A stretch of 64,000 bases of DNA from Caldithrix sp. (GTDB lineage Bacteria > Zhuqueibacterota > Zhuqueibacteria > Oceanimicrobiales > Oceanimicrobiaceae), in the NCBI GenBank assembly GCA_004356825.1, contig SMXC01000249.1:21885-85884 (forward strand). The letters are read 5' to 3'. Position numbers and translations under genes: made by a program. Shown piece after piece: positions 1,950 through 54,657 of the stretch. Position 1 is the stretch's first letter. The number at the start of each line of letters is the position of its first letter. The notes beneath the pieces are model-generated. The model was not told the origin of the DNA, did not search any database, and worked only from the letters and a program-made list of their open reading frames with translations.

Positions 1950-3188
1950 CTAGCGTCTTTTGCCCCTGCGGGAAGATGATGATCGTCCCGAAGATTTTGA
2001 TGAACCGCTGCTTTTACTGCTACCGCCTCTATAACTTTTGCCGCTGCCACCAGAGCTGTTGCCTGACTTGGAGCCACTGGGTTTGTAGCTTCTTTTCGGA
2101 CTGCTCTGGGATTTTGATGACCGCTCGCTCGAGTTTCTGCGTTTTACACTTTTACTTGACGAGGATTTACCGGCTTTTGAAGAACTTTTTCTATATTTAG
2201 GCGAGCTTCTATTGCTCTTCGACCTTCTCGAAATCGAACTTCGTGACTTTTTGGTTTTGCTTCTCCGGCTCTTTACAGCCTCGTCTCCGTCACTGCTGCT
2301 GTTTTTTCTTTTTGATTTTAATTTGGAATCACTTCGGCCACTTGACTCCCGCCCATTATCAGAACTTTTGCTGACCCTCTCAATGCGTTTCCCTCGCCTT
2401 CCCTGATCACTCGAGTCGGATCTTCTTTTCCGTCTTTTTATACGGTCTTTGCTGGATGCACTTTCTTTCCGAACACTCTGACCGCTGGATGTTCCTGCTG
2501 AAACTCTTGAGACCGGCGTATAATTGTCATCTCGTGAGCGTTCGTACCCGAAATCGGAGCCTCTTCTGCCGCGCCGGGTAAAATCACGCCGTTTTGCTGG
2601 AACACTGCGGACCGATGCAACGCTTGTCCTGGGGTAGTAATTTCCGTAATAGCCGTACGAACCTGATCTCAGGCACCCACCGTCAAAGTAGAAACCGCTG
2701 GTATAACCGAAAGAATATCGAGAGCCATAGTATCCAAAATAAAATGGATCGTAAAAAGGGTCGTAAAAACGACGCTGGTAACCGATGAAAAATGGATCAC
2801 GGTATCCTACATGCAAGGAAACATGACTTGAATAGGGTGCATACGAATCGTAAAAGTAAGGATCATAAAAAGGATCGTAATACCAGGGGGAAGGATAACC
2901 GCCATAAACATAAGTGTCGTGATAATATCTGCGCGTTAAGTGAATTTCATCATAATCCTCGATATCGCCCTCTTCATAATCCTCATAATCATCGTCTTCA
3001 CCGTATTCTTCATCTTCATAATAATCTTCTGGCTCTTCCGCATAATCTTCTGACTCGTCCGCGTATGTGCGTTGATCTGCCCTACTTGAATCAGGCTTCG
3101 CAAGCTGGGTATAACACCCGGAGAAGAAAAGCAACAAAACGAACATCAAGCTGAACAAGATTAGATTGTTAGATGTGTGCAACTTCAT
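1950..3188 (-). CDS. Lipoprotein with extreme compositional bias: an acidic D/E/Y block, an aromatic YDPF-repeat block and a long basic Ser/Arg/Lys tail. Unknown function.
   Basis: 412 aa. N-terminus MKLHTSNNLILFSLMFVLLLFFSGC (signal plus lipobox Cys). Residues about 35-80 are DEDYEE-rich. Residues about 85-190 carry YYDPFYDPYFYDSY and FYDPFYDPFYFGYYG repeats. Residues about 200-412 are almost only S, R, K and G (for example RRSKSNRSSPKYRKSSSKAGKSSSSKS). The frame stays open across 1.2 kb of repetitive DNA, which argues it is a real gene. Confidence 0.6.
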   Translation of the reverse strand: MKLHTSNNLILFSLMFVLLLFFSGCYTQLAKPDSSRADQRTYADESEDYAEEPEDYYEDEEYGEDDDYEDYEEGDIEDYDEIHLTRRYYHDTYVYGGYPSPWYYDPFYDPYFYDSYAPYSSHVSLHVGYRDPFFIGYQRRFYDPFYDPFYFGYYGSRYSFGYTSGFYFDGGCLRSGSYGYYGNYYPRTSVASVRSVPAKRRDFTRRGRRGSDFGYERSRDDNYTPVSRVSAGTSSGQSVRKESASSKDRIKRRKRRSDSSDQGRRGKRIERVSKSSDNGRESSGRSDSKLKSKRKNSSSDGDEAVKSRRSKTKKSRSSISRRSKSNRSSPKYRKSSSKAGKSSSSKSVKRRNSSERSSKSQSSPKRSYKPSGSKSGNSSGGSGKSYRGGSSKSSGSSKSSGRSSSSRRGKRR

Positions 3189-3407
3189 TTTATTCTCCTC
3201 ACAATTAATCCTAATTTATTAGCGTTAATCTATGAATGATCAGGCAAATGGCATGCCACTCTATTAATTAGTTAAGAATCTTGTCAATGCGTGCAATAAA
3301 TCTAACAGTTTATGAGCCCAATTAGTTCAAAATTAATGAAATTGATCTGGCGGATAGTATTTATAACTGGAAAGGGAATTAACGGCAACTGACAACAAAG
3401 TTAACAG

Positions 3408-4034
3408 TCAGTTTTTAATATCGAATCGGTAAGGCTGGGTAATCCAGAATTGAACCGCACGATTTCCTTCTTTGGCAGGGCGAAAACGACTCCCGTATGC
3501 AGCGTCGACAGCTGCCTGGGCGCATTTTTCGCTGTTCGTGGTATTATCGAGCACGATCACTTCAACAACTTTCCCCTTATCGTCGATATGAATACTCAAT
3601 TTCACCACCCCCTGCACGCCTTTTTTCTTTTCTTCTTTCGGGTATTCCGGGAAAACCCAGGCAATGGGTTTTGGCGGGGTGATGTTTGTTCCGGTGATTC
3701 CTGGAACACCCGGTGAGTCGTCAAAAATATTAGTATATTTCAGTGTGGTTTCTTCAATCGTAACATCTTCCGGAATGGTTTCATCTTCTGACGGCACGGG
3801 TACAGTCGGCTTTTTGGGTGGAGGCTTCATTCTCGTCTGACGTGTGATTGGAATATTCTCAACATGGATGATAATGTTTGGCGGCACGACCTCTTCAACA
3901 CTGAGCTTTATACGAGGGGAGATAGCGACTAACAGGTTAAGAAATACGAGCGTAACAACTAATGCTTTCTTAATGTTAATTGAAAATTGAGCATGGAAGT
4001 CTGCTTTAATTTTTTGGAAATCAATTGAGGACAT
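3408..4034 (-). CDS. tonB: TonB-family energy transducer (C-terminal TonB domain protein).
   Basis: 208 aa. N-terminal TM helix (LVVTLVFLNLLVAISP). Pro/Lys-rich spacer (PPPKKPTVPVPSED). C-terminal TonB_C-like domain (VFPEYPKEEKKKGVQGVVKLSIHIDDKGKVVEV...AAVDAAYGSRFRPAKEGNRAV). Last gene of the Bat-like operon. Confidence 0.65.
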   Translation of the reverse strand: MSSIDFQKIKADFHAQFSINIKKALVVTLVFLNLLVAISPRIKLSVEEVVPPNIIIHVENIPITRQTRMKPPPKKPTVPVPSEDETIPEDVTIEETTLKYTNIFDDSPGVPGITGTNITPPKPIAWVFPEYPKEEKKKGVQGVVKLSIHIDDKGKVVEVIVLDNTTNSEKCAQAAVDAAYGSRFRPAKEGNRAVQFWITQPYRFDIKN

Positions 4035-27123: not shown

Positions 27124-27207
27124 TGCCGAAGGGGGGACTCGAACCCCCACTGGGTTGCCCCACACGGCCCTCAACCGTGCGTGTCTACCAAATTCCACCA
27201 CTTCGGC
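27124..27207 (-). tRNA. tRNA-Leu (anticodon GAG), type II tRNA with a long variable arm; CCA not encoded.
   Basis: Reverse complement folds as acceptor GCCGAAG/CTTCGGC, D-stem GTG/CAC, anticodon stem CACGG/CCGTG with loop TTGAGGG (anticodon GAG, G37), variable arm TGGGGCAACCCAGT, T-arm GGGGG-TTCGAGT-CCCCC, discriminator A. Confidence 0.8.
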
Positions 27208-42113: not shown

Positions 42114-42572
42114 CTATTCGTCTTTTACTTCGATAATTTCCGCGTCCCCCCAAAGTCTCTCTAAACTATAAAATTCCCTTCGCGCCGGTTGAAACACATG
42201 CACTAAAACGCCAATATAGTCAAGCAAAATCCACTCCTGGTTCGATTGCCCTTCAATATGAAGCGGCCGGATTTTATCTTTTTTTAACGTATCAAAAATG
42301 TGGTCTGAAATTGCTTTAACTTGAGTGTTTGTAGAACCGGAACAGATCACAAAATAATCTGTCATGGTCGTGAGTGGGTGCAGTGTTAAAATCTGGACAT
42401 CGATTGCTTTTTTTTCTAAAGATAGATTTGCGACTTTTTCCGCAAGTTTTTTAGAATCCAAATAACTTATTCCCTCCTTTTTTTTCACAAAAAATATGCC
42501 CGACCAATGACATCGTTTGGTAGGACTTTTCCTTGTACCAAATAGGCATTCGCGATTACAAATTTCAAACAA
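42114..42572 (-). CDS. rsfS: Ribosome silencing factor RsfS (Iojap-like).
   Basis: Conserved DYFVICSGSTNTQVKAISDHI...WILLDYIGVLVHVFQPARREFYSLERLWGDA. The ORF track's N-terminal extension is probably not translated; the true start is likely an internal non-ATG codon about 30 codons in. Confidence 0.75.
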   Translation of the reverse strand: MFEICNRECLFGTRKSPTKRCHWSGIFFVKKKEGISYLDSKKLAEKVANLSLEKKAIDVQILTLHPLTTMTDYFVICSGSTNTQVKAISDHIFDTLKKDKIRPLHIEGQSNQEWILLDYIGVLVHVFQPARREFYSLERLWGDAEIIEVKDE

Positions 42573-45796: not shown

Positions 45797-47299
45797 CTAA
45801 CTATGTACGGCAAGCGACTCAGTTACTTCAGATGAGGGCAGCGAAATGGTAAAGGTCGTACCCTCATTCAATTTACTATCAACCAGAATCTTACCGCCCT
45901 CTCTCTCGATAATCATATGTGAGACATACAACCCCAATCCGGTGCCAACACCAACTTCTTTTGTGGTAAAGAACGGTGAAAACAAGCGCGGCAAATTTTC
46001 CTCAGGGATGCCGATACCTGTATCGGAAATTTGAATGTCAACTGATTTTTCACGGCTCTTCTTGATTGAAATTACGAGCTGCCCTCCATTCGGCATCGCT
46101 TGAATTGCGTTAATAATGATATTTAACAACACTTGCTTGAGTGAGTCCATGTTGAAATAAGCAAATGTATTTGGTTTGCCCTCGAAAATGTACTCGATAT
46201 TTCTGGCGATAAACTCTTTTTCAATAAGCGCCATGGTATCTGCAACAAGTTTTTCCAAATCGATCGATTCGTTTTCATATTCTGAATGCCGTGAATATTC
46301 CAACAGACTATTAATTATCTTAGAAGCACGTTTAACATTTTTGCTGATAATCTCCAATTTTGCCGAGATGTCATTACTTTTTTCCGGCAAAAATTGATCG
46401 ATGTAGTAACGGGCGGTCTCAATGACATTTAAAGGATTCCGTAATTCGTGAGCGATCCCCGAGGCAAGAAGACCAATTGTTGCCATTTTTTCAGATTGAA
46501 TCAAAGATTTTTCGAGTCCCCTTTTTTCGGTAATATTTTTGGAGTAGACCGCAACGGATTCCAATTTACGATCGACATTGAAAATCGGATAGCTCCGGGT
46601 GTCATAAACGTCAGCACCATTCGTTTTTTCAACAGAATGAGGTTTTAAACTGTCAAGGGTTGCTTTTACCGGGCAGCCACCGCAGGACTCGCAATTGAAG
46701 TAAACATCGTAGCACTTTTTCCCGATGAGATTTTCCGGCTGACTATTGCACAGCTCTGCGAATTTCTTATTCGCACGAATAATCTCATAATCCTTGTTAA
46801 CTTCGTAAATAATATCTTCGATGCCGTCGAACATGGTCTGCAATCGATTCTTACTCTCCAACACTTTTTCAAAAAGCTCACGGTTTTTTCTTTCGGACTT
46901 ACGAAGCTTAATATCCACCAGATTTTTTTCGATGGCTCTTTCAACAGCTTTTGGAAGAAGTGTCAGATACCCTGAATCCTTGACGAGATAATCATGGGCA
47001 CCACGTTTTAATGCTTCAACAGCAATCTTTTCATTGCCGTTTGCTGACACAATGATGACCGGTGCGTCAATTCCGGTTTGCTTTATTCTATTAAGAATTT
47101 CTATTCCGTCATATTCCGGCAAACTGTAGTCGAGGATAATGGTTTCGTAGTGATTACGGGTAAGTTTTCTTAAACAGTCCTTTCCGGAAAAAACGGTCTC
47201 AACTTCGATATGAGAATTGTAATTTCGCAAACGCTTTTGAATCAAATTCGCTTGATCCGGATCGTCTTCAACAAGCAGTATTTTTAAAGGACCATCCAT
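45797..47299 (-). CDS. Cytoplasmic hybrid signalling protein: receiver domain, PAS domain, HisKA and HATPase_c histidine kinase.
   Basis: 500 aa. REC (LLVEDDPD..., phospho-Asp in IILDYSLPEYDG, KRGAHDYLVK). PAS-like region containing CESCGGCP. H-box IAHELRNPL. N, G1 and G2 boxes (DTGIGIP, GTGLGL). No TM helix. Confidence 0.8.
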   Translation of the reverse strand: MDGPLKILLVEDDPDQANLIQKRLRNYNSHIEVETVFSGKDCLRKLTRNHYETIILDYSLPEYDGIEILNRIKQTGIDAPVIIVSANGNEKIAVEALKRGAHDYLVKDSGYLTLLPKAVERAIEKNLVDIKLRKSERKNRELFEKVLESKNRLQTMFDGIEDIIYEVNKDYEIIRANKKFAELCNSQPENLIGKKCYDVYFNCESCGGCPVKATLDSLKPHSVEKTNGADVYDTRSYPIFNVDRKLESVAVYSKNITEKRGLEKSLIQSEKMATIGLLASGIAHELRNPLNVIETARYYIDQFLPEKSNDISAKLEIISKNVKRASKIINSLLEYSRHSEYENESIDLEKLVADTMALIEKEFIARNIEYIFEGKPNTFAYFNMDSLKQVLLNIIINAIQAMPNGGQLVISIKKSREKSVDIQISDTGIGIPEENLPRLFSPFFTTKEVGVGTGLGLYVSHMIIEREGGKILVDSKLNEGTTFTISLPSSEVTESLAVHS

Positions 47300-47386: not shown

Positions 47387-48130
47387 TTATTTTGGCAGGG
47401 TAAAATAAAAGGTCGCACCTTTGTATTTTTTCGAATCCACCCAAACTTCGCCGCCATGACTCTCAATGACTTGCTTAACGATGGATAAACCCAATCCTGT
47501 GCCGGTCACGTTGTTTTTATTTCGCAGTCGGTTGAAAAGAACAAAAACTTTACTATGGTCAGCGGCCTTAAAACCTATGCCATTGTCGCGCACAAAAAAC
47601 TTATGGAAAATCTCCTCATCAGAATAGCCAATTTCAATTTCACCCCCACGTTTTTCGTGCGAGTACTTGATGGCGTTTCCGATTAGATTTGAAAATACCA
47701 AAACCATAGCACTGGCGTCGCAATTTAACTTAGGCAAGTGTGGCTGCACACGCATATGTATTTTTTTATGATGTAATTCGATAACATGGGAATCCAACGC
47801 TTTGTCGATAATTGTCAGCGCAGGGACTCGCTCAAATCGGTTTTTATCGATTGAAATTTTGGCTAATTTTGTGATATCAGTGAGCAGGCTGTCGACGCGG
47901 TTCAGATTCGTTATAATTCGATCCAGATAGGTTCGGGCCCCTTCAGGGAGGCTGTCATTGTATTCCTCGTACAAAAGGGAAGCAAAGCCCTGAATCGAAA
48001 CAAACGGTGTTCGAAGCTCGTGGGCAATTGTATGAAGATACTGATTCAGCCTATCATCCTTATGGTGAATCTCATCCGGTATAATCTTTACAACTGACTC
48101 GTTCATGATAAACTCACAAGAATTATTCAT
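47387..48130 (-). CDS. Soluble histidine kinase core (HisKA plus HATPase_c only).
   Basis: 247 aa. H-box IAHELRTPF. HATPase boxes NAIKYS, DNGIGF, GTGLGLSIV. No sensor or TM domain. Confidence 0.8.
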   Translation of the reverse strand: MNNSCEFIMNESVVKIIPDEIHHKDDRLNQYLHTIAHELRTPFVSIQGFASLLYEEYNDSLPEGARTYLDRIITNLNRVDSLLTDITKLAKISIDKNRFERVPALTIIDKALDSHVIELHHKKIHMRVQPHLPKLNCDASAMVLVFSNLIGNAIKYSHEKRGGEIEIGYSDEEIFHKFFVRDNGIGFKAADHSKVFVLFNRLRNKNNVTGTGLGLSIVKQVIESHGGEVWVDSKKYKGATFYFTLPK

Positions 48131-48339
48131 ACAAACCGATATAAAACTAATTCATCCACGGTTAAATTCCAAACAAAAAAACCAATATTACCGCTTTTTA
48201 ATAAAAGGGACTTGGATTCCATCGGAGGTTTTACGATTATTTGAGCAAAGGAATAAATCCGTGACCGGTGAGACTAGATTTTAAATATGTGAGGAGTCGC
48301 CCGTGGATTTATAAAAGTTGATTGCTGGCAGGTTTGTGC

Positions 48340-49368
48340 TTACTGCAGATATTTTAAAAACGCCCAGGAGACTGTTTTGAAACCGCTTCTTATACTTTCC
48401 TCCAATGGAACCGCAGACTTTGAATCGCCAGTGCCAATTTCTAAAATAGTGCCGGGCACCGCTTTCAGGTAGTGCGTCAAATCAGGAGAGGGATAGCGGC
48501 TATACTCAATATCCACGACTTTAACGCTTCCTAAAACTTCTTTGGCAGCATTGCTCAAATGGCAAGAAAGCGACTCATCGAAAGTTACAGTTGAATGTTT
48601 TGCTGTTTGAATTTCAAACTCAAGGCCATAAGCCTTAGTCAATCCTTGAACTGATTCTTTAATCAAAGATGGAATCTGGTGCGCCACCGCTTTATCCGAG
48701 CTCGAATAACTACCTTTGACTTCAACAGAGTTGGGAATTGACGTGTCGGCGCTTGAACTATGTATTGAAGAAATCGTGATGTTCGCCGGCTTTAACGGAT
48801 CCGTTTTTCTGCTCGTTAATTGATTTAATGTGGTGATAATATTTGCTGTCGCCGTTATGACATTTGAAGAATTACTTCTGCTAAAAATAGTAAGCGCAAA
48901 ATCCTCAACCGTGGAGAAAACAGAACCAAGTTTGATGCCAACGCACCCCGAGGAAATATTAGAATTGGTTCTCAAATTCCAAAGGCCGCAAATATTCTTG
49001 AGTTCACCTTCCTGAATCGATTTTAGAGAAAAATTAGAACCCGTTTTACTTGTGTGGAAAATGACGCGCAATTGACCCATCATCTGCTCTTTACACGAGG
49101 TCAAAAAACTAAGTGCCCCTAAACCTATGATGGCTTGAACTGGATCATCCATTACAATCCGTAAAGCAATATTCTTCGAGGCGGAATTCTGAATTTGGAG
49201 TTCAGCAACAACCCTGGTTTGTTCTACAATTTTGCTTTCAAGTCCAAATGAGCGTATTATTTTGGAAACAGAATGAACCGTTGGATGCTCGACTTCGCAC
49301 TTTTTGCTAACCTCAATTAAGGCAGGGCTAAATTCTTCTGTTAACCTATTAAATTGTTCCAGAGTCAT
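48340..49368 (-). CDS. Degenerate M20D-family (amidohydrolase/aminoacylase-like) homolog lacking the metal-binding and catalytic residues; probable pseudoenzyme.
   Basis: 342 aa. Collinear with M20D enzymes block by block: IALRIVMDD vs IALRADMDA; FLFQPAEE replaced by VIFHTSKT; HACGHD region replaced by IIGLGA; GHGA replaced by SRSN; C-terminal LKAVPGTILEIGTGD...AVPLEESIRSGFKTVSWAFLKYL matches the M20D tail. Ser/Thr-rich. Confidence 0.5.
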   Translation of the reverse strand: MTLEQFNRLTEEFSPALIEVSKKCEVEHPTVHSVSKIIRSFGLESKIVEQTRVVAELQIQNSASKNIALRIVMDDPVQAIIGLGALSFLTSCKEQMMGQLRVIFHTSKTGSNFSLKSIQEGELKNICGLWNLRTNSNISSGCVGIKLGSVFSTVEDFALTIFSRSNSSNVITATANIITTLNQLTSRKTDPLKPANITISSIHSSSADTSIPNSVEVKGSYSSSDKAVAHQIPSLIKESVQGLTKAYGLEFEIQTAKHSTVTFDESLSCHLSNAAKEVLGSVKVVDIEYSRYPSPDLTHYLKAVPGTILEIGTGDSKSAVPLEESIRSGFKTVSWAFLKYLQ

Positions 49369-49389: not shown

Positions 49390-50376
49390 CTAAAAAAGGT
49401 ACGATATTTCTTCGACAATCCTCTTGACATACTGGTTCAATTCACCTTCAAGCAGGACGCCAGCGGCATATTGATGTCCGCCGCCGCCATATTGCTGGGC
49501 AATGCCATTGATCACATAATTCCCTTTCGACCGCAGGCTCAATTTAACCTGGCCTTTTTCCTTTTCGATAAACATGGCCGTCACTTCAACGCCATCAATT
49601 CTTCTTGGATAATCTGCAAAGCCTTCAGTATCGTAGGATTTCGCACCGATGCTATCAATGAGATCTTTTGTGACGGTCATGACGGCAATCTTGCCGCCGT
49701 GTTCAAGTCTTAAAGTCCGCAATGCATGTGCGAACAATTTCACCTTGTTCATTGACTCGTGCTCTCTTACTTTTTCATAAATCTTGTCTGGGCGGGCGCC
49801 ATTTTTAACCAGATCAGCAACAATCGAAAATGCTTTCGAGCTCGAGTTTGAATATTTAAACCAACCCGTATCTGTTAGAATACTTGTGTATAGCGCCTCC
49901 GCGATTTGCTTTGTAATCTTTGCATCACAGAAACGAAGGAAATCATAAACCAACTCCCCCGTTGAACAGGCTTTTGTATCTATTAAATTTAGTTCGGTAA
50001 AGTTCGGATTCGCAGGATGGTGATCAATACAAATCCGTGTTATCTTAGTTTCTCTTATATCCTTCCCAACCTGCTTCAAACGGTCCCAATCGCTGATATC
50101 TAAAATAAAAATAAAATCAGCCATCAGTAGGATTTCACGGTGACTTTCACTCTCGTAGATTTGAATTTTATTATCGGGATCCAGGAATTTGTAATTATGT
50201 GGCACGGGGCTGCTATTGAAAATATAAACATCCTTCCCCAAATCAGCAAAAAAAGCCGCGAGTGCGGCTTCCGATCCCAATCCATCGCCATCAGGGTTAA
50301 CGTGGGTTGTCAATATGAAACGCTGCCCCCGTTCAATGCAATCCTTTACTTTTTCCAGTGATGTCCTATCAAGCAT
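49390..50376 (-). CDS. nrnA: DHH-family bifunctional oligoribonuclease / pAp phosphatase NrnA.
   Basis: 328 aa. DHH motifs NPDGDGLGS, DxD, ICIDHH. DHHA1-like C-terminus with GGGH. Confidence 0.8.
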   Translation of the reverse strand: MLDRTSLEKVKDCIERGQRFILTTHVNPDGDGLGSEAALAAFFADLGKDVYIFNSSPVPHNYKFLDPDNKIQIYESESHREILLMADFIFILDISDWDRLKQVGKDIRETKITRICIDHHPANPNFTELNLIDTKACSTGELVYDFLRFCDAKITKQIAEALYTSILTDTGWFKYSNSSSKAFSIVADLVKNGARPDKIYEKVREHESMNKVKLFAHALRTLRLEHGGKIAVMTVTKDLIDSIGAKSYDTEGFADYPRRIDGVEVTAMFIEKEKGQVKLSLRSKGNYVINGIAQQYGGGGHQYAAGVLLEGELNQYVKRIVEEISYLF

Positions 50377-50437: not shown

Positions 50438-52639
50438 TTATTGCTTAAAATTCTTTTTACCGAATCCAATGTTATCGAGCGAATCTTTGACCTTTATCAC
50501 AACGGTGTTGGTTCCTTCAAGGAGTGAAGAAACCTTTATTTCGAACTGTTCTTTTTTAGAATCACAAATGCCATCGACCGGGTAAACCAGACTCCAATCG
50601 TCCGCGTTTAGACCGTATTCGACGGATAAAATATTCATCTGACTATCAAAAACAGAGAAAGACAGAATGGTATTCTTGCCCTGTGAACGTACTTTAATCT
50701 CAGAAACTTCCGGACCTTTATTGTCAACGATAAACGGCTGGCTTATCTTTTCAGATGAAAGGGTCATCGCCGGAGGATTTGAAAGATCGTCTTTCGCCAC
50801 CAACTTTATGAAATAGCGACCGTCGGGGAAAAGTTCGCTATCCCAGGAATAGACATATCCATTAAAATTCTCAGCCAGGGTTCGCCACTGGTTTTCATTC
50901 TCCCCTTTATAAAAAAGATCAAATGATAAATGATCACGGTTTTCATCTTGTGTTCGCCAACTGACAGACCGAAATCCTTTTTTGTAAGTTTTACGCCCAA
51001 GGGATTGGCTTTGAAAACCATTTCGCCCTGATGAATTGTTCTTTCCCAAATGTGAATCATCGGAATTCTTATTGGCAGATCCGGGGTAGTAATCACCTGC
51101 GGAATGCAAAGTTATTTCTTCAATTTGCGGAGCGACATTTTTTTGAAGATACGAAAATGAAACTTGTTTTAGCACGGAAGAGTTCTTACCGTCTTTTGTC
51201 GAAAACTTTGCTTTGAACTGAATAAAACGCGCACTCGGGCTGGTAACCGCTTGTCCCATTGGATTATAGTAACTGCTTGACCACGGGCTCCAGGTCTTAT
51301 CGGGTTCTTCCGTGTTGCCGGAACGGGTGTAAAAAACCAGGCCGGAATTGGAAGTCATTTCCACTTCCCAACTGATTTCCCCCCACTGCGAGGTCACTTT
51401 TGCGTCGACAACATCCGACAAATAATACCCGTCCGAACTGAATCTTGCATTCAAAGTGTAGACGCTTCCGCTATTGGAAGTCCCGAGGTAAATTGTCCCG
51501 TGAGAATTCTTTGCCAGCACGGTAATTTGCAAATCCTCAAGCTGACTTAAAAGCGTGTGCTCACCAGATTGAGACAATGAATAGAGCCTGCCTTTATCAC
51601 CGGTGCCCACTAAAATATTACCGGATGCATTCAGAATCATGGCGTAGATGCGATCCTTCGGAGTGGACCAAAATGTACGCACCATGCCGTCCCTATCGAT
51701 ACGGTAAACTGTGCTGCCCCGTGAACTTCCCCGCCCTCTGCTGCCGGTCGAAATATTCTGAACAGGCAGGTCGAGACCCTCGTCTTCATCATCGTCGAAC
51801 TTGCTATTCTCCTGGCCACCTGAAGTAGAAGTTGCTTTGACAGCAGGAATTGCGGTTTTCAGTAAGGCGTCTCCGGAGATGGCAACATAAATATCTCCTG
51901 AACGGTCTTGCAGCAAATCAGTCACTTCAATAAGGGGAGAATCGTAAAGCACAAATGCTTTGCCGTCAGGAGATATGCGCATCGCTATGCCTTTACCCGA
52001 GGTTCCAGCCAGAATGTTGCCGCTTCTATCCAAAATCATCTTTCGGATGTGAGCGTCTTCGCTTTCGAAAAATAGAGAGTGGCCGCCTTTAGAATCGACT
52101 TTATAAATTAAACCCTTTTCGCCGGTTGCCACAAACAGGTTATTTTGCTTGTCAACGACCATCGACCAAATGTAAATATCTTCGGGATCAAAAAACACAA
52201 CATCTTCCGCTTTGGGAGTGCTTCCAAATGGAATTTTGTATACTTTCCCACGCGGTGAAGTCGCGACGAAGAGGTTGTTCTCGCCATCCGTTGCTAAAGC
52301 GTAAATCTCGATCTCATCGGCTTCAAAAATTTCGGCTGCTTCATTCTTTGAATTAATTTTAAAAACCTTACCGCCATTGCCGCCGGCAACATAAATATTT
52401 CCACGCTGATCCGCCGCCATAGCCCAGACAAAAGGCAAATCTGTGTTAAAAGTTTCATTAATTTGCGGGGCTAGTTTGATCTCACCATAGCTGTTAATTG
52501 AAACCCCTTTCGGTTCACCTTTTTCAAAATCCTTTTGAGTACGGTAGGTGATGATTTTTGGTGTTGAAGCAGCCAACAATGAAACCAAGGCTAAAAGAAT
52601 TAATTTCATGAACAACGAGGATTTTTGTATTTTTTTCAT
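50438..52639 (-). CDS. Secreted beta-propeller protein with Reg_prop-type repeats and C-terminal Y_Y_Y/Ig-like domains. No TM or kinase domain.
   Basis: 733 aa. Signal peptide. At least seven repeats of the form GNIYVAGGNGGKVFKI, NNLFVATSPRGKVYKI, NNLFVATGEKGLIYKV, GNILVGTGDKGRLYSL, GTIYLGTSNSGSVYTL. C-terminal LSFDLFYKGENENQWRTLAENFNGYVYSWDSELFPDGRYFIKLVAKDD is Y_Y_Y-like. Confidence 0.6.
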   Translation of the reverse strand: MKKIQKSSLFMKLILLALVSLLAASTPKIITYRTQKDFEKGEPKGVSINSYGEIKLAPQINETFNTDLPFVWAMAADQRGNIYVAGGNGGKVFKINSKNEAAEIFEADEIEIYALATDGENNLFVATSPRGKVYKIPFGSTPKAEDVVFFDPEDIYIWSMVVDKQNNLFVATGEKGLIYKVDSKGGHSLFFESEDAHIRKMILDRSGNILAGTSGKGIAMRISPDGKAFVLYDSPLIEVTDLLQDRSGDIYVAISGDALLKTAIPAVKATSTSGGQENSKFDDDEDEGLDLPVQNISTGSRGRGSSRGSTVYRIDRDGMVRTFWSTPKDRIYAMILNASGNILVGTGDKGRLYSLSQSGEHTLLSQLEDLQITVLAKNSHGTIYLGTSNSGSVYTLNARFSSDGYYLSDVVDAKVTSQWGEISWEVEMTSNSGLVFYTRSGNTEEPDKTWSPWSSSYYNPMGQAVTSPSARFIQFKAKFSTKDGKNSSVLKQVSFSYLQKNVAPQIEEITLHSAGDYYPGSANKNSDDSHLGKNNSSGRNGFQSQSLGRKTYKKGFRSVSWRTQDENRDHLSFDLFYKGENENQWRTLAENFNGYVYSWDSELFPDGRYFIKLVAKDDLSNPPAMTLSSEKISQPFIVDNKGPEVSEIKVRSQGKNTILSFSVFDSQMNILSVEYGLNADDWSLVYPVDGICDSKKEQFEIKVSSLLEGTNTVVIKVKDSLDNIGFGKKNFKQ

Positions 52640-52656
52640 AATCCCTTACTTGATTT

Positions 52657-54489
52657 TTACCTGGGTTCTACACTAATTAAAATGGTTTTACCGCCTGAAA
52701 CGGAATAATTGACTTCCACACTCGTCTCAAAAAGAACGCGATTTCTTAAGTTAGAAAGATTCCCAGATGATTTCTGAGCATTCATCACGGCAAGAATTGA
52801 AGGCGGAAGGGCAGGCAGTTCTTCCCCGGCGACCAGGACTCCTTTGTCTCGCAAACGAATCTGAAAAAACAGATAATTATTTTTTCGTCTTTCTTTCAGC
52901 AGCTTCGTAAGTTGTTGAAAGCTTTTGGGTCTAAACTTCTGCGGCGACGTTCTGGCCTCCTGTCGGGTGAGGGTGCCACCGCTTCCTGCATAAATCGAGA
53001 TTCGCCGTTCACGAATTCCTTCCGGAATTTTTAGCACATGGTCTATTTTGTGTTCCTCACCCTGATATTCTCTGAAATAAACAGACAGTTTAATTTCATC
53101 ACCCGGTTTAACCACCATTCTATCGACTTCAATTTTTTCAACGATGGCAAGATTCTTTTGGTGCAGGGCCTCAAAATTCAACTCAACCGACTCGATTTCC
53201 GGAGCCTCAAAATTGTTAGACAGAAGTGCGCCAACCGTTGCTGAGATTTCTCCGGTCGCTTCAATCGTGTCCGTGATGAAAGTTGAAGGTCTGCCGCCGG
53301 CATAATAATTTTGCAGGGGGATAGATTCGTAACCTTTTAAATTAATTTTGCCTTCCAGTTTCAGAGTCTGGTTCCCTTGAGACAAACGGACCGATTCCAA
53401 AGCATTTGTTAAAACAATGGTGAAAATAAACGGCGTCAAAGAATAGAGTCTGCGATCCTCTGCAATTCGAAAATTAAACTCTTTGTCGTCTTGAAACTTA
53501 GAGCGGAAACGCAGCCGGATGGGAATCATTTTAGCTGACTCACCCGTAACGCCCATAATTCCGGTTGTGCGATCCTGGTGAATCGTCCCGGCGATTTCAG
53601 TGAGCGCAGACATTTTTGTAGAAAACATCAAACTCGAGAGAGTTGTGAGAATTTTTGCTTTGCCCATCGGCAGTTCAAGCGCGCCGCTGTTCAAGAACGA
53701 GTGTCCCATTCCCAGGACTTTATTGCCATCTACATAAGTTACAGTGCCCGTTGCTTGCAGTCCCATATCGCCATCGACGATAACAATAGAATATGCAGAG
53801 CCAGGTTCTAAAGGTCCTAAATCTGGTTTTTCATTTGTGAACGTTCCGCCGCCGCTTAGAACCTGCACGCCCATTCCGTCAAAAACGGTTGAACAAAATT
53901 CTAAAACCGAATTCTCGAATCCCGAAAAAATAAGCGGCGTGTCTAAAGGATTAATTCGGGCCAGGCTTGTTTTCCTTTTGGCCCTCCTAAATTCGAGGGG
54001 AAGAATATCTTCCAGGGAGAACTCCTGTGCTCCGACCGCCATTGCGAGATAGGATTCATTAAACCCGCGAACGGCGGCCAATTCCTCGGGACGTACTTTT
54101 TCCCAGGCAAGAATTTCAAACATTTGCTCAATGGGCGTGACGCCGGCGATGGGCTCTTTCATGAAAATGCCCATGCTGTAGGACAACGCTCCGATGAGCT
54201 TGCCGTCGATGTACATCGGGCTGCCACTCATGCCCGCCACAACACCAGTGTACTCGATTTTTTCACCAATAAGTCTGGTCAAAATCAAATCGCGTTTCGC
54301 TCTGAAGTTGGGAATAATTTCGAGAACTTCGAATTCAAATTCTTCGATTTCAGTACCGACAAAAACGGTTTTGCCTATCCCGCGCATGCCCGGTTTGATT
54401 TGATTTAAGGGCATGATCTCTTCGCCGGCAAAACCGGTGTTTGCAAATAAAACCAAAATTGAAAGTAAAATCATTTTTTTTGGAATCAT
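52657..54489 (-). CDS. Secreted serine peptidase-like protein with SpoIVB/S55-like motifs (GMSGSP) and a large C-terminal domain.
   Basis: Start set at MIPKKMILLSILVLFANTGFAG (signal peptide, ATG at 54489) rather than the longest ORF. VAGMSGSPMYIDGKLIGALSY resembles the SpoIVB catalytic Ser block. TGTVTYVDGNKVLGMGHSF resembles the SpoIVB His block but lies downstream of the Ser block. Confidence 0.45.
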   Translation of the reverse strand: MIPKKMILLSILVLFANTGFAGEEIMPLNQIKPGMRGIGKTVFVGTEIEEFEFEVLEIIPNFRAKRDLILTRLIGEKIEYTGVVAGMSGSPMYIDGKLIGALSYSMGIFMKEPIAGVTPIEQMFEILAWEKVRPEELAAVRGFNESYLAMAVGAQEFSLEDILPLEFRRAKRKTSLARINPLDTPLIFSGFENSVLEFCSTVFDGMGVQVLSGGGTFTNEKPDLGPLEPGSAYSIVIVDGDMGLQATGTVTYVDGNKVLGMGHSFLNSGALELPMGKAKILTTLSSLMFSTKMSALTEIAGTIHQDRTTGIMGVTGESAKMIPIRLRFRSKFQDDKEFNFRIAEDRRLYSLTPFIFTIVLTNALESVRLSQGNQTLKLEGKINLKGYESIPLQNYYAGGRPSTFITDTIEATGEISATVGALLSNNFEAPEIESVELNFEALHQKNLAIVEKIEVDRMVVKPGDEIKLSVYFREYQGEEHKIDHVLKIPEGIRERRISIYAGSGGTLTRQEARTSPQKFRPKSFQQLTKLLKERRKNNYLFFQIRLRDKGVLVAGEELPALPPSILAVMNAQKSSGNLSNLRNRVLFETSVEVNYSVSGGKTILISVEPR

Positions 54490-54563
54490 GATAAAAAATG
54501 TTTTTAAAAAGAAGTCATTCCCGCGCAGGCGGAATCCAGAACAAAGCAGAAGCAGCCTAAGAT

Positions 54564-54597
54564 GAAAAAAACCTGGATGCCCGCCTGCCGTGGGCAT
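54564..54597 (-). terminator. Rho-independent terminator downstream of the phosphohexomutase gene.
   Basis: Minus strand: ATGCCC-ACGGCAGGC-GGGCAT, then CCAGG and T7. A second bulged hairpin (ATTCCcGC-GCAG-GCGGAAT) at 54517-54535 lies just upstream of the peptidase start. Confidence 0.5.
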
Positions 54598-54657
54598 GAC
54601 ATATTGCCAGAATCGGTTATCCATAATTATTCAATTTGACCAAATAAAACAAAAGAT

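Follow-up and report, generated by a model that had tools for sequence, protein, structure and literature searches.

A non-catalytic M20D-fold protein retained at a fixed locus downstream of nrnA in Calditrichota and candidate division KSB1

Enzymes of the M20D family, which comprises amidohydrolases, aminoacylases, and carboxydipeptidases such as YxeP of Bacillus subtilis (PDB entry 1ysj), ILL2 of Arabidopsis (1xmb), SAPEP of Staphylococcus aureus (4ewt), and the Corynebacterium N-acyl-glutamine aminoacylase (6slf), combine a catalytic alpha/beta domain with an inserted lid/dimerisation domain. M20D-fold subunits may also be paired: AbgA and AbgB of Escherichia coli, encoded side by side, reportedly form a heteromeric, Mn-dependent p-aminobenzoyl-glutamate hydrolase. 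Pseudoenzymes, along with the “non-peptidase homologues” of M20 recorded in MEROPS, are a known kind of protein, the bacterial ones being poorly catalogued compared to those of eukaryotes. Histidine kinases (HKs), for their part, can be controlled by separately encoded accessory proteins, as in the LuxP-LuxQ, TorT-TorS, PII/GlnB-NtrB, and KipI-KinA pairs; we know of no M20-fold kinase accessory, and our literature search found none. The same search returned no described M20D pseudoenzyme, none with a fixed genomic locus, and no association of NrnA, M20 proteins, and kinases. The subject of this work is pM20D, an M20D-fold protein of 342 aa without catalysis, encoded at positions 48340..49368 on the minus strand of a 64,000-nt stretch of DNA (here, “the window”) from Caldithrix sp. 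(assembly GCA_004356825.1, contig SMXC01000249.1, positions 21,885 to 85,884), Caldithrix being a member of the phylum Calditrichota. All features of the window listed below are on that same strand.

Like the M20D enzymes, pM20D has a catalytic-type alpha/beta domain with an inserted lid/dimerisation domain, aligns with them block for block over nearly its full length, and shares the SR-x-x-DP motif in the lid and the VPG...G motif near the C-terminus. What sets it apart is the absence of the metal ligands (the bridging Cys, one Glu, and three His), of both catalytic residues (Asp and Glu), and of the conserved Arg and Asn of the lid; deletions have also shortened it, and its scores reach none of the curated family cut-offs. 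PMC11511702 describes the bridging Cys of M20D and the general-base Glu of the M20 enzymes, and passages of PMC5106787 and PMC10211241 define a pseudoenzyme as a retained protein that keeps an enzyme fold and has lost the catalytic residues. pM20D fits this description as an M20D homologue that has lost the essential catalytic residues and is under purifying selection across independent lineages. As detailed below, it is an ancient, vertically inherited, selected, and non-catalytic M20D-fold protein from uncultured hosts of the Calditrichota/KSB1 lineage that descends from an enzyme at the same locus.

The pM20D sequence is identical to that of TDI95068.1, recorded as “MAG: hypothetical protein E2O76_14360 [Caldithrix sp.]” (MAG, metagenome-assembled genome), and its start, MTLEQF, is common to all close orthologues in the alignment; its 90% cluster-mates carry the names Caldithrix sp. 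or candidate division KSB1. NCBIfam searches matched it to CpsA (E=9.6e-26), DoeB2 (E=2.3e-24), and TIGR01891 “amidohydrolases” (E=8.4e-21), all far under the respective cut-offs (74.5 against a curated 153.75 in the case of TIGR01891). In Pfam, the M20_dimer domain (PF07687) scored 20.7 bits, just below its cut-off of 21, and the scan gave no match to Peptidase_M20 (PF01546). In phmmer searches of PDB sequences, pM20D retrieved YxeP (1ysj; E=1.4e-13) and ILL2 (1xmb; E=3.7e-11), and a profile built from the degenerate clade described below matched YxeP with E=5.7e-46 over profile positions 13-348, that is, nearly full length, followed by ILL2, SAPEP, and the Corynebacterium acyl-glutamine aminoacylase, all of them M20D proteins. 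When an AF2 model of pM20D (pLDDT 82.4, pTM 0.70) was searched with Foldseek, the leading matches were 1xmb, 1ysj, 4ewt, and 6slf, at a probability of 1.00 and E values of 1e-21 to 1e-19. Significant profile-level homology to M20D spans both domains of the protein. Given the NCBIfam, phmmer, clade-profile, and Foldseek matches, the M20D ancestry of pM20D and its predicted two-domain fold, a catalytic domain plus a lid/dimerisation domain, can be regarded as established, in line with the M20D homology proposed in the first-pass annotation of this DNA.

To characterize the active site, we read seven alignment columns, namely, the Cys, His, and Asp of HxCGHD, both Glu residues of FQPxEE, the His of GxGxH, and the His of HxPxF, using as a reference 94 intact M20D sequences, each of at least 370 aa, from among the aligned top matches of the exhaustive profile search. 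The ligands other than the bridging Cys are placed on these motifs by analogy with the family at large and by their 100% invariance in the intact set. The intact enzymes have the signature C-H-D-E-E-H-H, whereas pM20D reads “- - P K T - -”: all five ligands of the co-catalytic metal pair are gone, four by deletion and one by a Glu-to-Thr replacement, the general-base Glu is replaced by Lys108, and the column of the catalytic Asp is occupied by Pro76, next to a deletion. Relative to the intact enzymes, pM20D has four in-frame deletions, of 8, 24, 7, and 9 residues, 48 residues together. The first of them, of 8 residues, is close to the N-terminus. The 24-residue deletion, at the junction of D74 and D75 (49146..49147), takes out the ...ALP..E...S....MHACGHD segment, and with it two metal ligands (Cys and His) as well as the catalytic Asp. 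The general-base and ligand Glu residues are replaced by Lys and Thr, respectively, within FHTSKT (residues 104-109, 49042..49059), which stands in place of FQPAEE. The 7-residue deletion at the junction of N166 and S167 (48870..48871) removes GHGxxPH with the ligand His of G-H-G/A-x-P-H, and the 9-residue deletion at the junction of L322 and E323 (48402..48403) removes HHPxFxxDE with the ligand His of the C-terminal HxPxF. On this column read-out, pM20D cannot be an M20D-type metallohydrolase.

The claim of the first-pass annotation that every metal-ligand and catalytic position had been lost thus agrees with the comparison to the 94 intact enzymes, and its replacement of FQPAEE by FHTSKT is the one seen in the alignment. 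Its pairing of HACGHD with IIGLGA rests on a misalignment: HACGHD falls inside the 24-residue deletion, and what IIGLGA corresponds to is the helix next in line after that motif. The proposed substitution of GHGA by SRSN was right as to the loss of the His and wrong as to its mode, since this His falls in the 7-residue deletion that comes after SRSN. One more ligand goes unnamed there, namely, the fifth, which is the His of the C-terminal HxPxF and is lost as well.

The degeneration extends beyond the catalytic residues. Across the degenerate clade, free variation is seen at about 25 positions whose conservation in true M20D proteins is 85-100%, including an Arg of the lid domain (99% in intact M20D), an Asn (93%), a His (100%), and an E-D-F motif; at these columns, pM20D has S222, T209, R133, and P295-D296-L297, respectively. 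Retention of an N-acyl-amino-acid pocket is therefore an unsupported option, as the pocket residues are unconstrained across the clade.

A word-indexed search found only seven close orthologues of pM20D (61-97% identity) before dropping to real enzymes at ~24%, and a search of metagenome contigs with a subset of the alignment added one more (locus L009). An exhaustive profile search of 1.84 billion representatives yielded 2018 relatives, of which the best-scoring full-length ones (331-401 aa, 20-34% identity to pM20D) were all without the active-site signature, with the sole exception of the partly intact P0019; they fall into 16 groups with mutual identity of <28%. In total, the signature is missing from pM20D and 28 further representatives, so that the clade includes at least 29 cluster representatives (clusters at 50% identity). 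In a neighbour-joining tree of these 29 sequences, P0019, and 25 intact M20Ds, based on Kimura-corrected p-distances, the degenerate sequences were monophyletic in 100/100 bootstraps and P0019, on a much shorter branch, was their sister in 93/100. The named members of the clade all come from MAGs assigned to Caldithrix sp., Calditrichota, candidate division KSB1, or plain “bacterium,” and most are annotated as “hypothetical protein.” Three sequences have been named “M20/M25/M40 family metallo-hydrolase” or “amidohydrolase,” namely, P0021 (MFQ5708423.1) and P0025 (MFQ5603144.1), both without the metal-binding signature, and P0178 (MFQ5864679.1), which clusters at 90% with the dead P0015; the functional annotation of all three appears to overreach.

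P0019, representing the cluster of RMD95142.1 (“amidohydrolase [Calditrichota bacterium]”), is encoded at positions 2767-3960 of locus L014 and, at 397 aa, has the normal length. It matches the Pfam Peptidase_M20 domain, is 27% identical to pM20D over 351 residues, and has the signature C-H-D-K-E-A-H: the general-base Glu is replaced by Lys and one His is lost, with the rest kept. In terms of motifs, HACGHD is retained, FQPAEE has become FQPAKE, and GxGGH is replaced by an SKDEAVRHHH segment. Its gene, in a Calditrichota MAG, is found 24 nt after nrnA and behind a beta-propeller gene, which is the same orthologous locus as that of pM20D; in contrast to pM20D, P0019 keeps HACGHD, the ligand Glu, the C-terminal His, and the full length. 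It could bind metal without turnover and may represent a natural “half-dead” intermediate.

Selection on the gene was assessed from the ratios of nonsynonymous to synonymous substitution rates (dN/dS), calculated by the pairwise Nei-Gojobori method for four orthologous loci (dS 0.6-0.8), with confidence intervals (CIs) from a codon bootstrap. The ratios were 0.24-0.32 for pM20D, compared to 0.08-0.09 for the upstream nrnA gene, 0.05-0.07 for the short HK encoded downstream, and 0.11-0.14 for the hybrid HK that follows. The 95% CIs for pM20D (0.32 [0.24-0.43] and 0.24 [0.16-0.33]) are clearly below 1 and do not overlap with those for nrnA (0.05-0.14) or the short HK (0.03-0.10). In the closest pair, the window and locus L005 (dS ~0.17-0.33), all the ratios are up, to 0.58 for pM20D and 0.13-0.15 for its neighbours. 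At the deepest level, the identity to the window proteins is 25-30% for pM20D, 48-54% for the beta-propeller protein, 54-62% for NrnA, 58-65% for the S55 peptidase, 59-61% for the short HK, and 78-82% for the epimerase, making pM20D the fastest gene of the block; it evolves at about twice the pace of its neighbours, yet under purifying selection. No stops or frameshifts were found in any clade member, and all indels are in frame. Taken together with dN/dS below 1 despite the fastest divergence, this indicates that the gene is functional but weakly constrained. A recent pseudogene is ruled out by the clade-wide loss of the signature, the monophyly, the intact open reading frames (ORFs), and dN/dS of <1, which leaves standing the earlier description of pM20D as a pseudoenzyme.

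The distribution of the remaining constraint differs from that in the enzymes. Mean pairwise identities in true M20D are 0.40 for the N-terminal catalytic half, 0.35 for the lid, and 0.32 for the C-terminal part, compared to 0.20, 0.27, and 0.25, respectively, in the pseudo-clade. In close orthologues, dN/dS is 0.36-0.50 in the N-terminal part, 0.21-0.29 in the lid, and 0.12-0.17 in the C-terminal part. The lid/dimerisation domain remnant (~residues 150-262, 48583..48921), delineated by the Pfam M20_dimer match and by conservation, is the best-conserved part clade-wide; it includes the SRKTDPLKP motif (48787-48813), in which R187 and P191 are invariant throughout the clade. G148, G219, and G280 are nearly invariant over the whole clade. 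Most positions that are at least 70% conserved in the clade are shared with active enzymes (Gly, Pro, and hydrophobic residues and the R187-x-x-D190-P191 turn) and look structural. Clade-specific conserved positions are few (Q183, 96%; R101, 75%) or hydrophobic, with Q183 the only polar one above 90%, and the analysis of column conservation revealed no conserved His, Cys, Ser, or Glu. This inverted pattern of constraint, along with the free variation of the pocket residues, argues against a kept ancestral pocket and in favour of a scaffold or protein-interaction role.

In the window, pM20D is preceded by nrnA (49390..50376), whose product is a DHH/DHHA1 oligoribonuclease/pAp phosphatase with intact DHH and GGGH motifs, identified by Pfam, BLAST, and a motif check; the nrnA stop codon lies 21 nt ahead of the pM20D start, and a scan for consensus sigma-70 promoters and terminators found nothing in this gap. 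Contexts were obtained for nine deep lineages, with the upstream gene identified by Pfam or BLAST, and in all nine, nrnA is directly upstream and co-directional, with -1 to 37 nt in between (for L012, where the upstream gene is partial, BLAST recognized it as nrnA). Ahead of nrnA, in the same orientation and in the same conserved block, are the genes for a beta-propeller protein of 733 aa, its N-terminus hydrophobic and signal-like and its Reg_prop/SGL matches faint (50438-52639), and for an S55 (SpoIVB-like) peptidase (52657-54624). The S55 peptidase and the ~730-aa protein always precede the nrnA-pM20D pair, with tight spacing, in the window and in L001, L010, L011, L013, and L015. The S55 peptidase is thus conserved in a housekeeping context outside Firmicutes; its window ORF, at 655 aa, is longer than the orthologues (584-614 aa) and probably has an over-long N-terminus.

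Lineage-wide, the collinear order is RF1-PrmC-PGM-S55 peptidase-propeller-NrnA-pM20D, followed by (HK)n-polyprenyl synthase-ApbE-epimerase-RsfS-ArgRS, a block that consists mostly of housekeeping genes. The RsfS ORF of the window (42114-42572) is listed as 152 aa from a TTG codon and probably has an internal true start, the orthologues being 115-116 aa long. A tRNA gene (27124-27207) is the only Rfam match at the gathering threshold in the 64-kb window. Because the gene order is frozen and partly inherited, adjacency to nrnA, and likewise to the kinases, is weak evidence of function. The ancestor at this locus was presumably an active M20D encoded directly downstream of nrnA, given that the partly intact P0019 sits there too.

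On the other side, pM20D is followed in the window by two HK genes, as the first-pass annotation had described them: a short cytoplasmic HK with HisKA and HATPase_c domains, an HELRTP H-box, and no sensor domain (47387..48106; Pfam and orthologue alignment) and a REC-PAS-HisKA-HATPase_c hybrid (45797..47299; Pfam and NCBIfam). The short HK was listed with a start at 48130 (247 aa); only the second ATG, at 48106 (MNESV..., 239 aa), is kept in the orthologues, and just ~20 residues precede the DHp domain. The PAS domain of the hybrid kinase has a C-x7-C-x2-C-x2-C motif (CYDVYFNCESCGGC) at residues 196-209 (46673-46714), which is kept in the four close orthologues and is missing from the homologous kinases of the distant lineages L013, L015, and L016; it may serve as a metal, Fe-S, or redox site particular to this lineage. 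The module had been called sensor-less, which does not hold for the module as a whole, because the hybrid HK has a PAS domain and other lineages have an HK of 350-373 aa with a PAS-like N-terminus.

At least one HK gene follows pM20D in six of the eight deep lineages for which downstream sequence was available (L008, L012, L013, L015, L016, and the window group), in a linkage that lies within the frozen synteny block, with the number of kinases ranging from 0 to 3 and their types also variable. L013 and L015 have three (a 370-373-aa HK with a PAS-like N-terminus, the short HK of 246-247 aa, and a PAS-HK of 478-496 aa), L008 has at least two, the window group has two (the short HK and the REC-PAS-HK), and L016 has only a PAS-HK and no short HK. 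In L010, there is no HK, and pM20D is followed by a convergent RND efflux operon; at L014, the P0019 locus, there is no HK within the 582 nt available downstream. An extra PAS-like HK of 351-373 aa is encoded between pM20D and the short HK in L008 (2277-3332), L012 (2115-3230), L013 (9228-10349), and L015 (9295-10407), where the window has only the gap of 48131-48339. The window lineage has lost this kinase; tblastn found no remnant of it in the 209-nt gap.

The gap between pM20D and the first kinase ranges from 105 to 319 nt across lineages (209 nt in the window as listed). Counted from the conserved kinase start, the intergenic region spans 48107..48339, and its distal ~110 nt (about 48107-48215) are near-invariant in the alignment of four orthologous loci whose synonymous sites have diverged by 0.7-1.1. 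This invariant block holds TTTG (48173-48170)-N20-TAGTTTTA (48149-48142), which looks like a putative promoter and which we take to resemble the -33/-7 promoters of Bacteroidota type; the block could equally be an operator or leader element of the kinase operon. In the stretch from pM20D to the HK gene, the scan for consensus sigma-70 promoters and terminators turned up nothing convincing.

How the retained scaffold works is open to several readings. The one that we prefer, tentatively and at somewhat less than an even chance, is that pM20D, expressed together with NrnA, works as a subunit that binds protein and has no enzymatic role, NrnA being, by gene order, its likeliest partner. The history behind it is shown by the comparisons above: an M20D gene stood immediately downstream of nrnA in an ancestor within the Calditrichota/KSB1 lineage, and the main lineage lost all five ligands, both catalytic residues (Asp and Glu), and the lid residues that bind substrate, after which came lineage-specific in-frame deletions, four of them in the window lineage. 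Constraint has shifted away from the N-terminal catalytic half, and it is now the lid/dimerisation domain and the C-terminal segment that bear it. In the preferred reading, pM20D, produced from the same transcript as NrnA, would act as a regulatory or structural subunit through its kept two-domain scaffold, not through the old substrate pocket, and might affect the oligomeric state, activity, or stability of NrnA in nanoRNA/pAp turnover, with the adjacent kinases as the second candidate partner. Several points weigh against this reading. NrnA comes in as the partner from gene order only, and with the gene order frozen across the whole lineage, the adjacency could be inherited rather than functional; indeed, the nrnA linkage is older than the loss of catalysis, because the presumed active ancestor was already next to nrnA. 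No interaction surface is identifiable in pM20D, since the constraint is relaxed and a conserved polar patch is lacking. Its most conserved motif, RKxDPLxP, is common to active M20Ds and may be purely structural, and the AF2 model represents this loop poorly (pLDDT<50 at residues 188-191). As to the history of the clade, the support for monophyly may be inflated by long-branch attraction, as the tree was built by neighbour joining from fast-evolving sequences; the orthology of the clade members is supported, apart from the tree, by synteny.

The alternative put forward in the first-pass annotation was that pM20D had kept ligand binding and serves as a cytoplasmic co-sensor or regulator of the adjacent HKs, relaying an N-acyl amino acid or peptide signal to the short HK. 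pM20D does resemble known HK accessory proteins in being encoded by a non-kinase gene beside kinases, and it could tune a kinase that lacks its own input domain and has barely anything ahead of DHp; HK genes follow it in most of the deep lineages, and the P0019 locus, without an HK in the available sequence, would fit kinase recruitment after catalytic loss, although this is a single case. We nevertheless consider this role unlikely. In such accessory proteins, the sites for ligands or interactions are conserved and the cognate kinase does not change, whereas the pocket of pM20D is unconstrained, with no new conserved polar residues at the old site, and its kinases vary from none, as in L010, to three, with L016 keeping pM20D in the absence of the short HK. 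Furthermore, elsewhere it is the PAS-like HK that comes first in line, the hybrid HK has its own PAS domain, and the whole adjacency is embedded in frozen housekeeping synteny, in which pM20D is packed against nrnA and the kinases stand behind a gap of variable length with a conserved promoter-like element. Less probable still is a dead subunit that forms, via the lid domain, a heteromer with an active M20D paralogue encoded elsewhere and tunes its activity or specificity, much as in pairs of a pseudoenzyme with an enzyme generally. In its favour, the lid is the best-conserved domain clade-wide, M20 enzymes generally oligomerise via the lid (hence the Pfam name “Peptidase dimerisation domain”), and AbgA/AbgB offers a precedent for two M20D-fold subunits in one complex, with the AbgB-like structure 3io1 found among both the fold and the profile matches. 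Unlike in the AbgA/AbgB pair, there is no metal site in pM20D and no second M20D gene nearby, tblastn finding no paralogue in the 64-kb window and none being present in the fetched loci; besides, in close orthologues, it is the C-terminal segment of the catalytic domain and not the lid that has the lowest dN/dS.

The two remaining explanations concern whether pM20D does anything at all and whether it is still an enzyme. In favour of a functionless relic, slowly decaying or kept for the sake of operon architecture alone, pM20D is the fastest-evolving gene of its block, with dN/dS 3-5 times that of its neighbours, several lineage-specific deletions, and clade members of 331 to 401 aa. Such a relic is nonetheless highly improbable, as the frames remain intact in every member while NrnA falls to ~55% identity, dN/dS stays significantly under 1, no indel breaks the frame, the AF2 fold is confident, and R187 and P191 are invariant, with the three Gly residues nearly so. 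The slimmest chance goes to an enzyme with a relocated or metal-independent active site, for which the general point can be made that some “pseudoenzymes” have migrated catalytic residues (a passage of PMC10211241) and that Q183, R187, K188, and D190 are both conserved and polar. However, active M20Ds conserve R187, D190, and P191 to the same degree without using them in catalysis, so they are probably structural; just one clade-specific polar residue exceeds 90%, and there is no conserved His, Cys, Ser, or Glu.

With NrnA binding by a non-enzymatic pM20D retained as the preferred reading, one extension of it is worth mentioning as a long shot: the dead M20D scaffold might be an adaptor that physically couples NrnA, and hence the turnover of nanoRNA, pAp, and linear dinucleotides, to the neighbouring cytoplasmic HK network.

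What is new here is a clade-wide M20D pseudoenzyme with an unusually clear degeneration series at one fixed locus, which runs from P0019, with part of the catalytic set lost, through full-length lineages with all the ligands substituted, to lineages with deletions of the ligand loops, including that of the window. This series can be used to ask what selection keeps once catalysis is gone, which in this case is the lid and the C-terminal segment. Calditrichota and KSB1 have been discussed mainly for protein degradation in sediments; because some clade members without a metal site are named metallo-hydrolase or amidohydrolase, peptidase counts in these groups may be inflated. If pM20D does regulate NrnA or the kinases, it would bring a new fold to the bacterial signalling adaptors. 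Should it be the adaptor between them, kinases without an input domain of their own would read out the status of nucleotide degradation, and pM20D would be the first M20-fold pseudoenzyme in signalling and the first protein regulator of bacterial NrnA.

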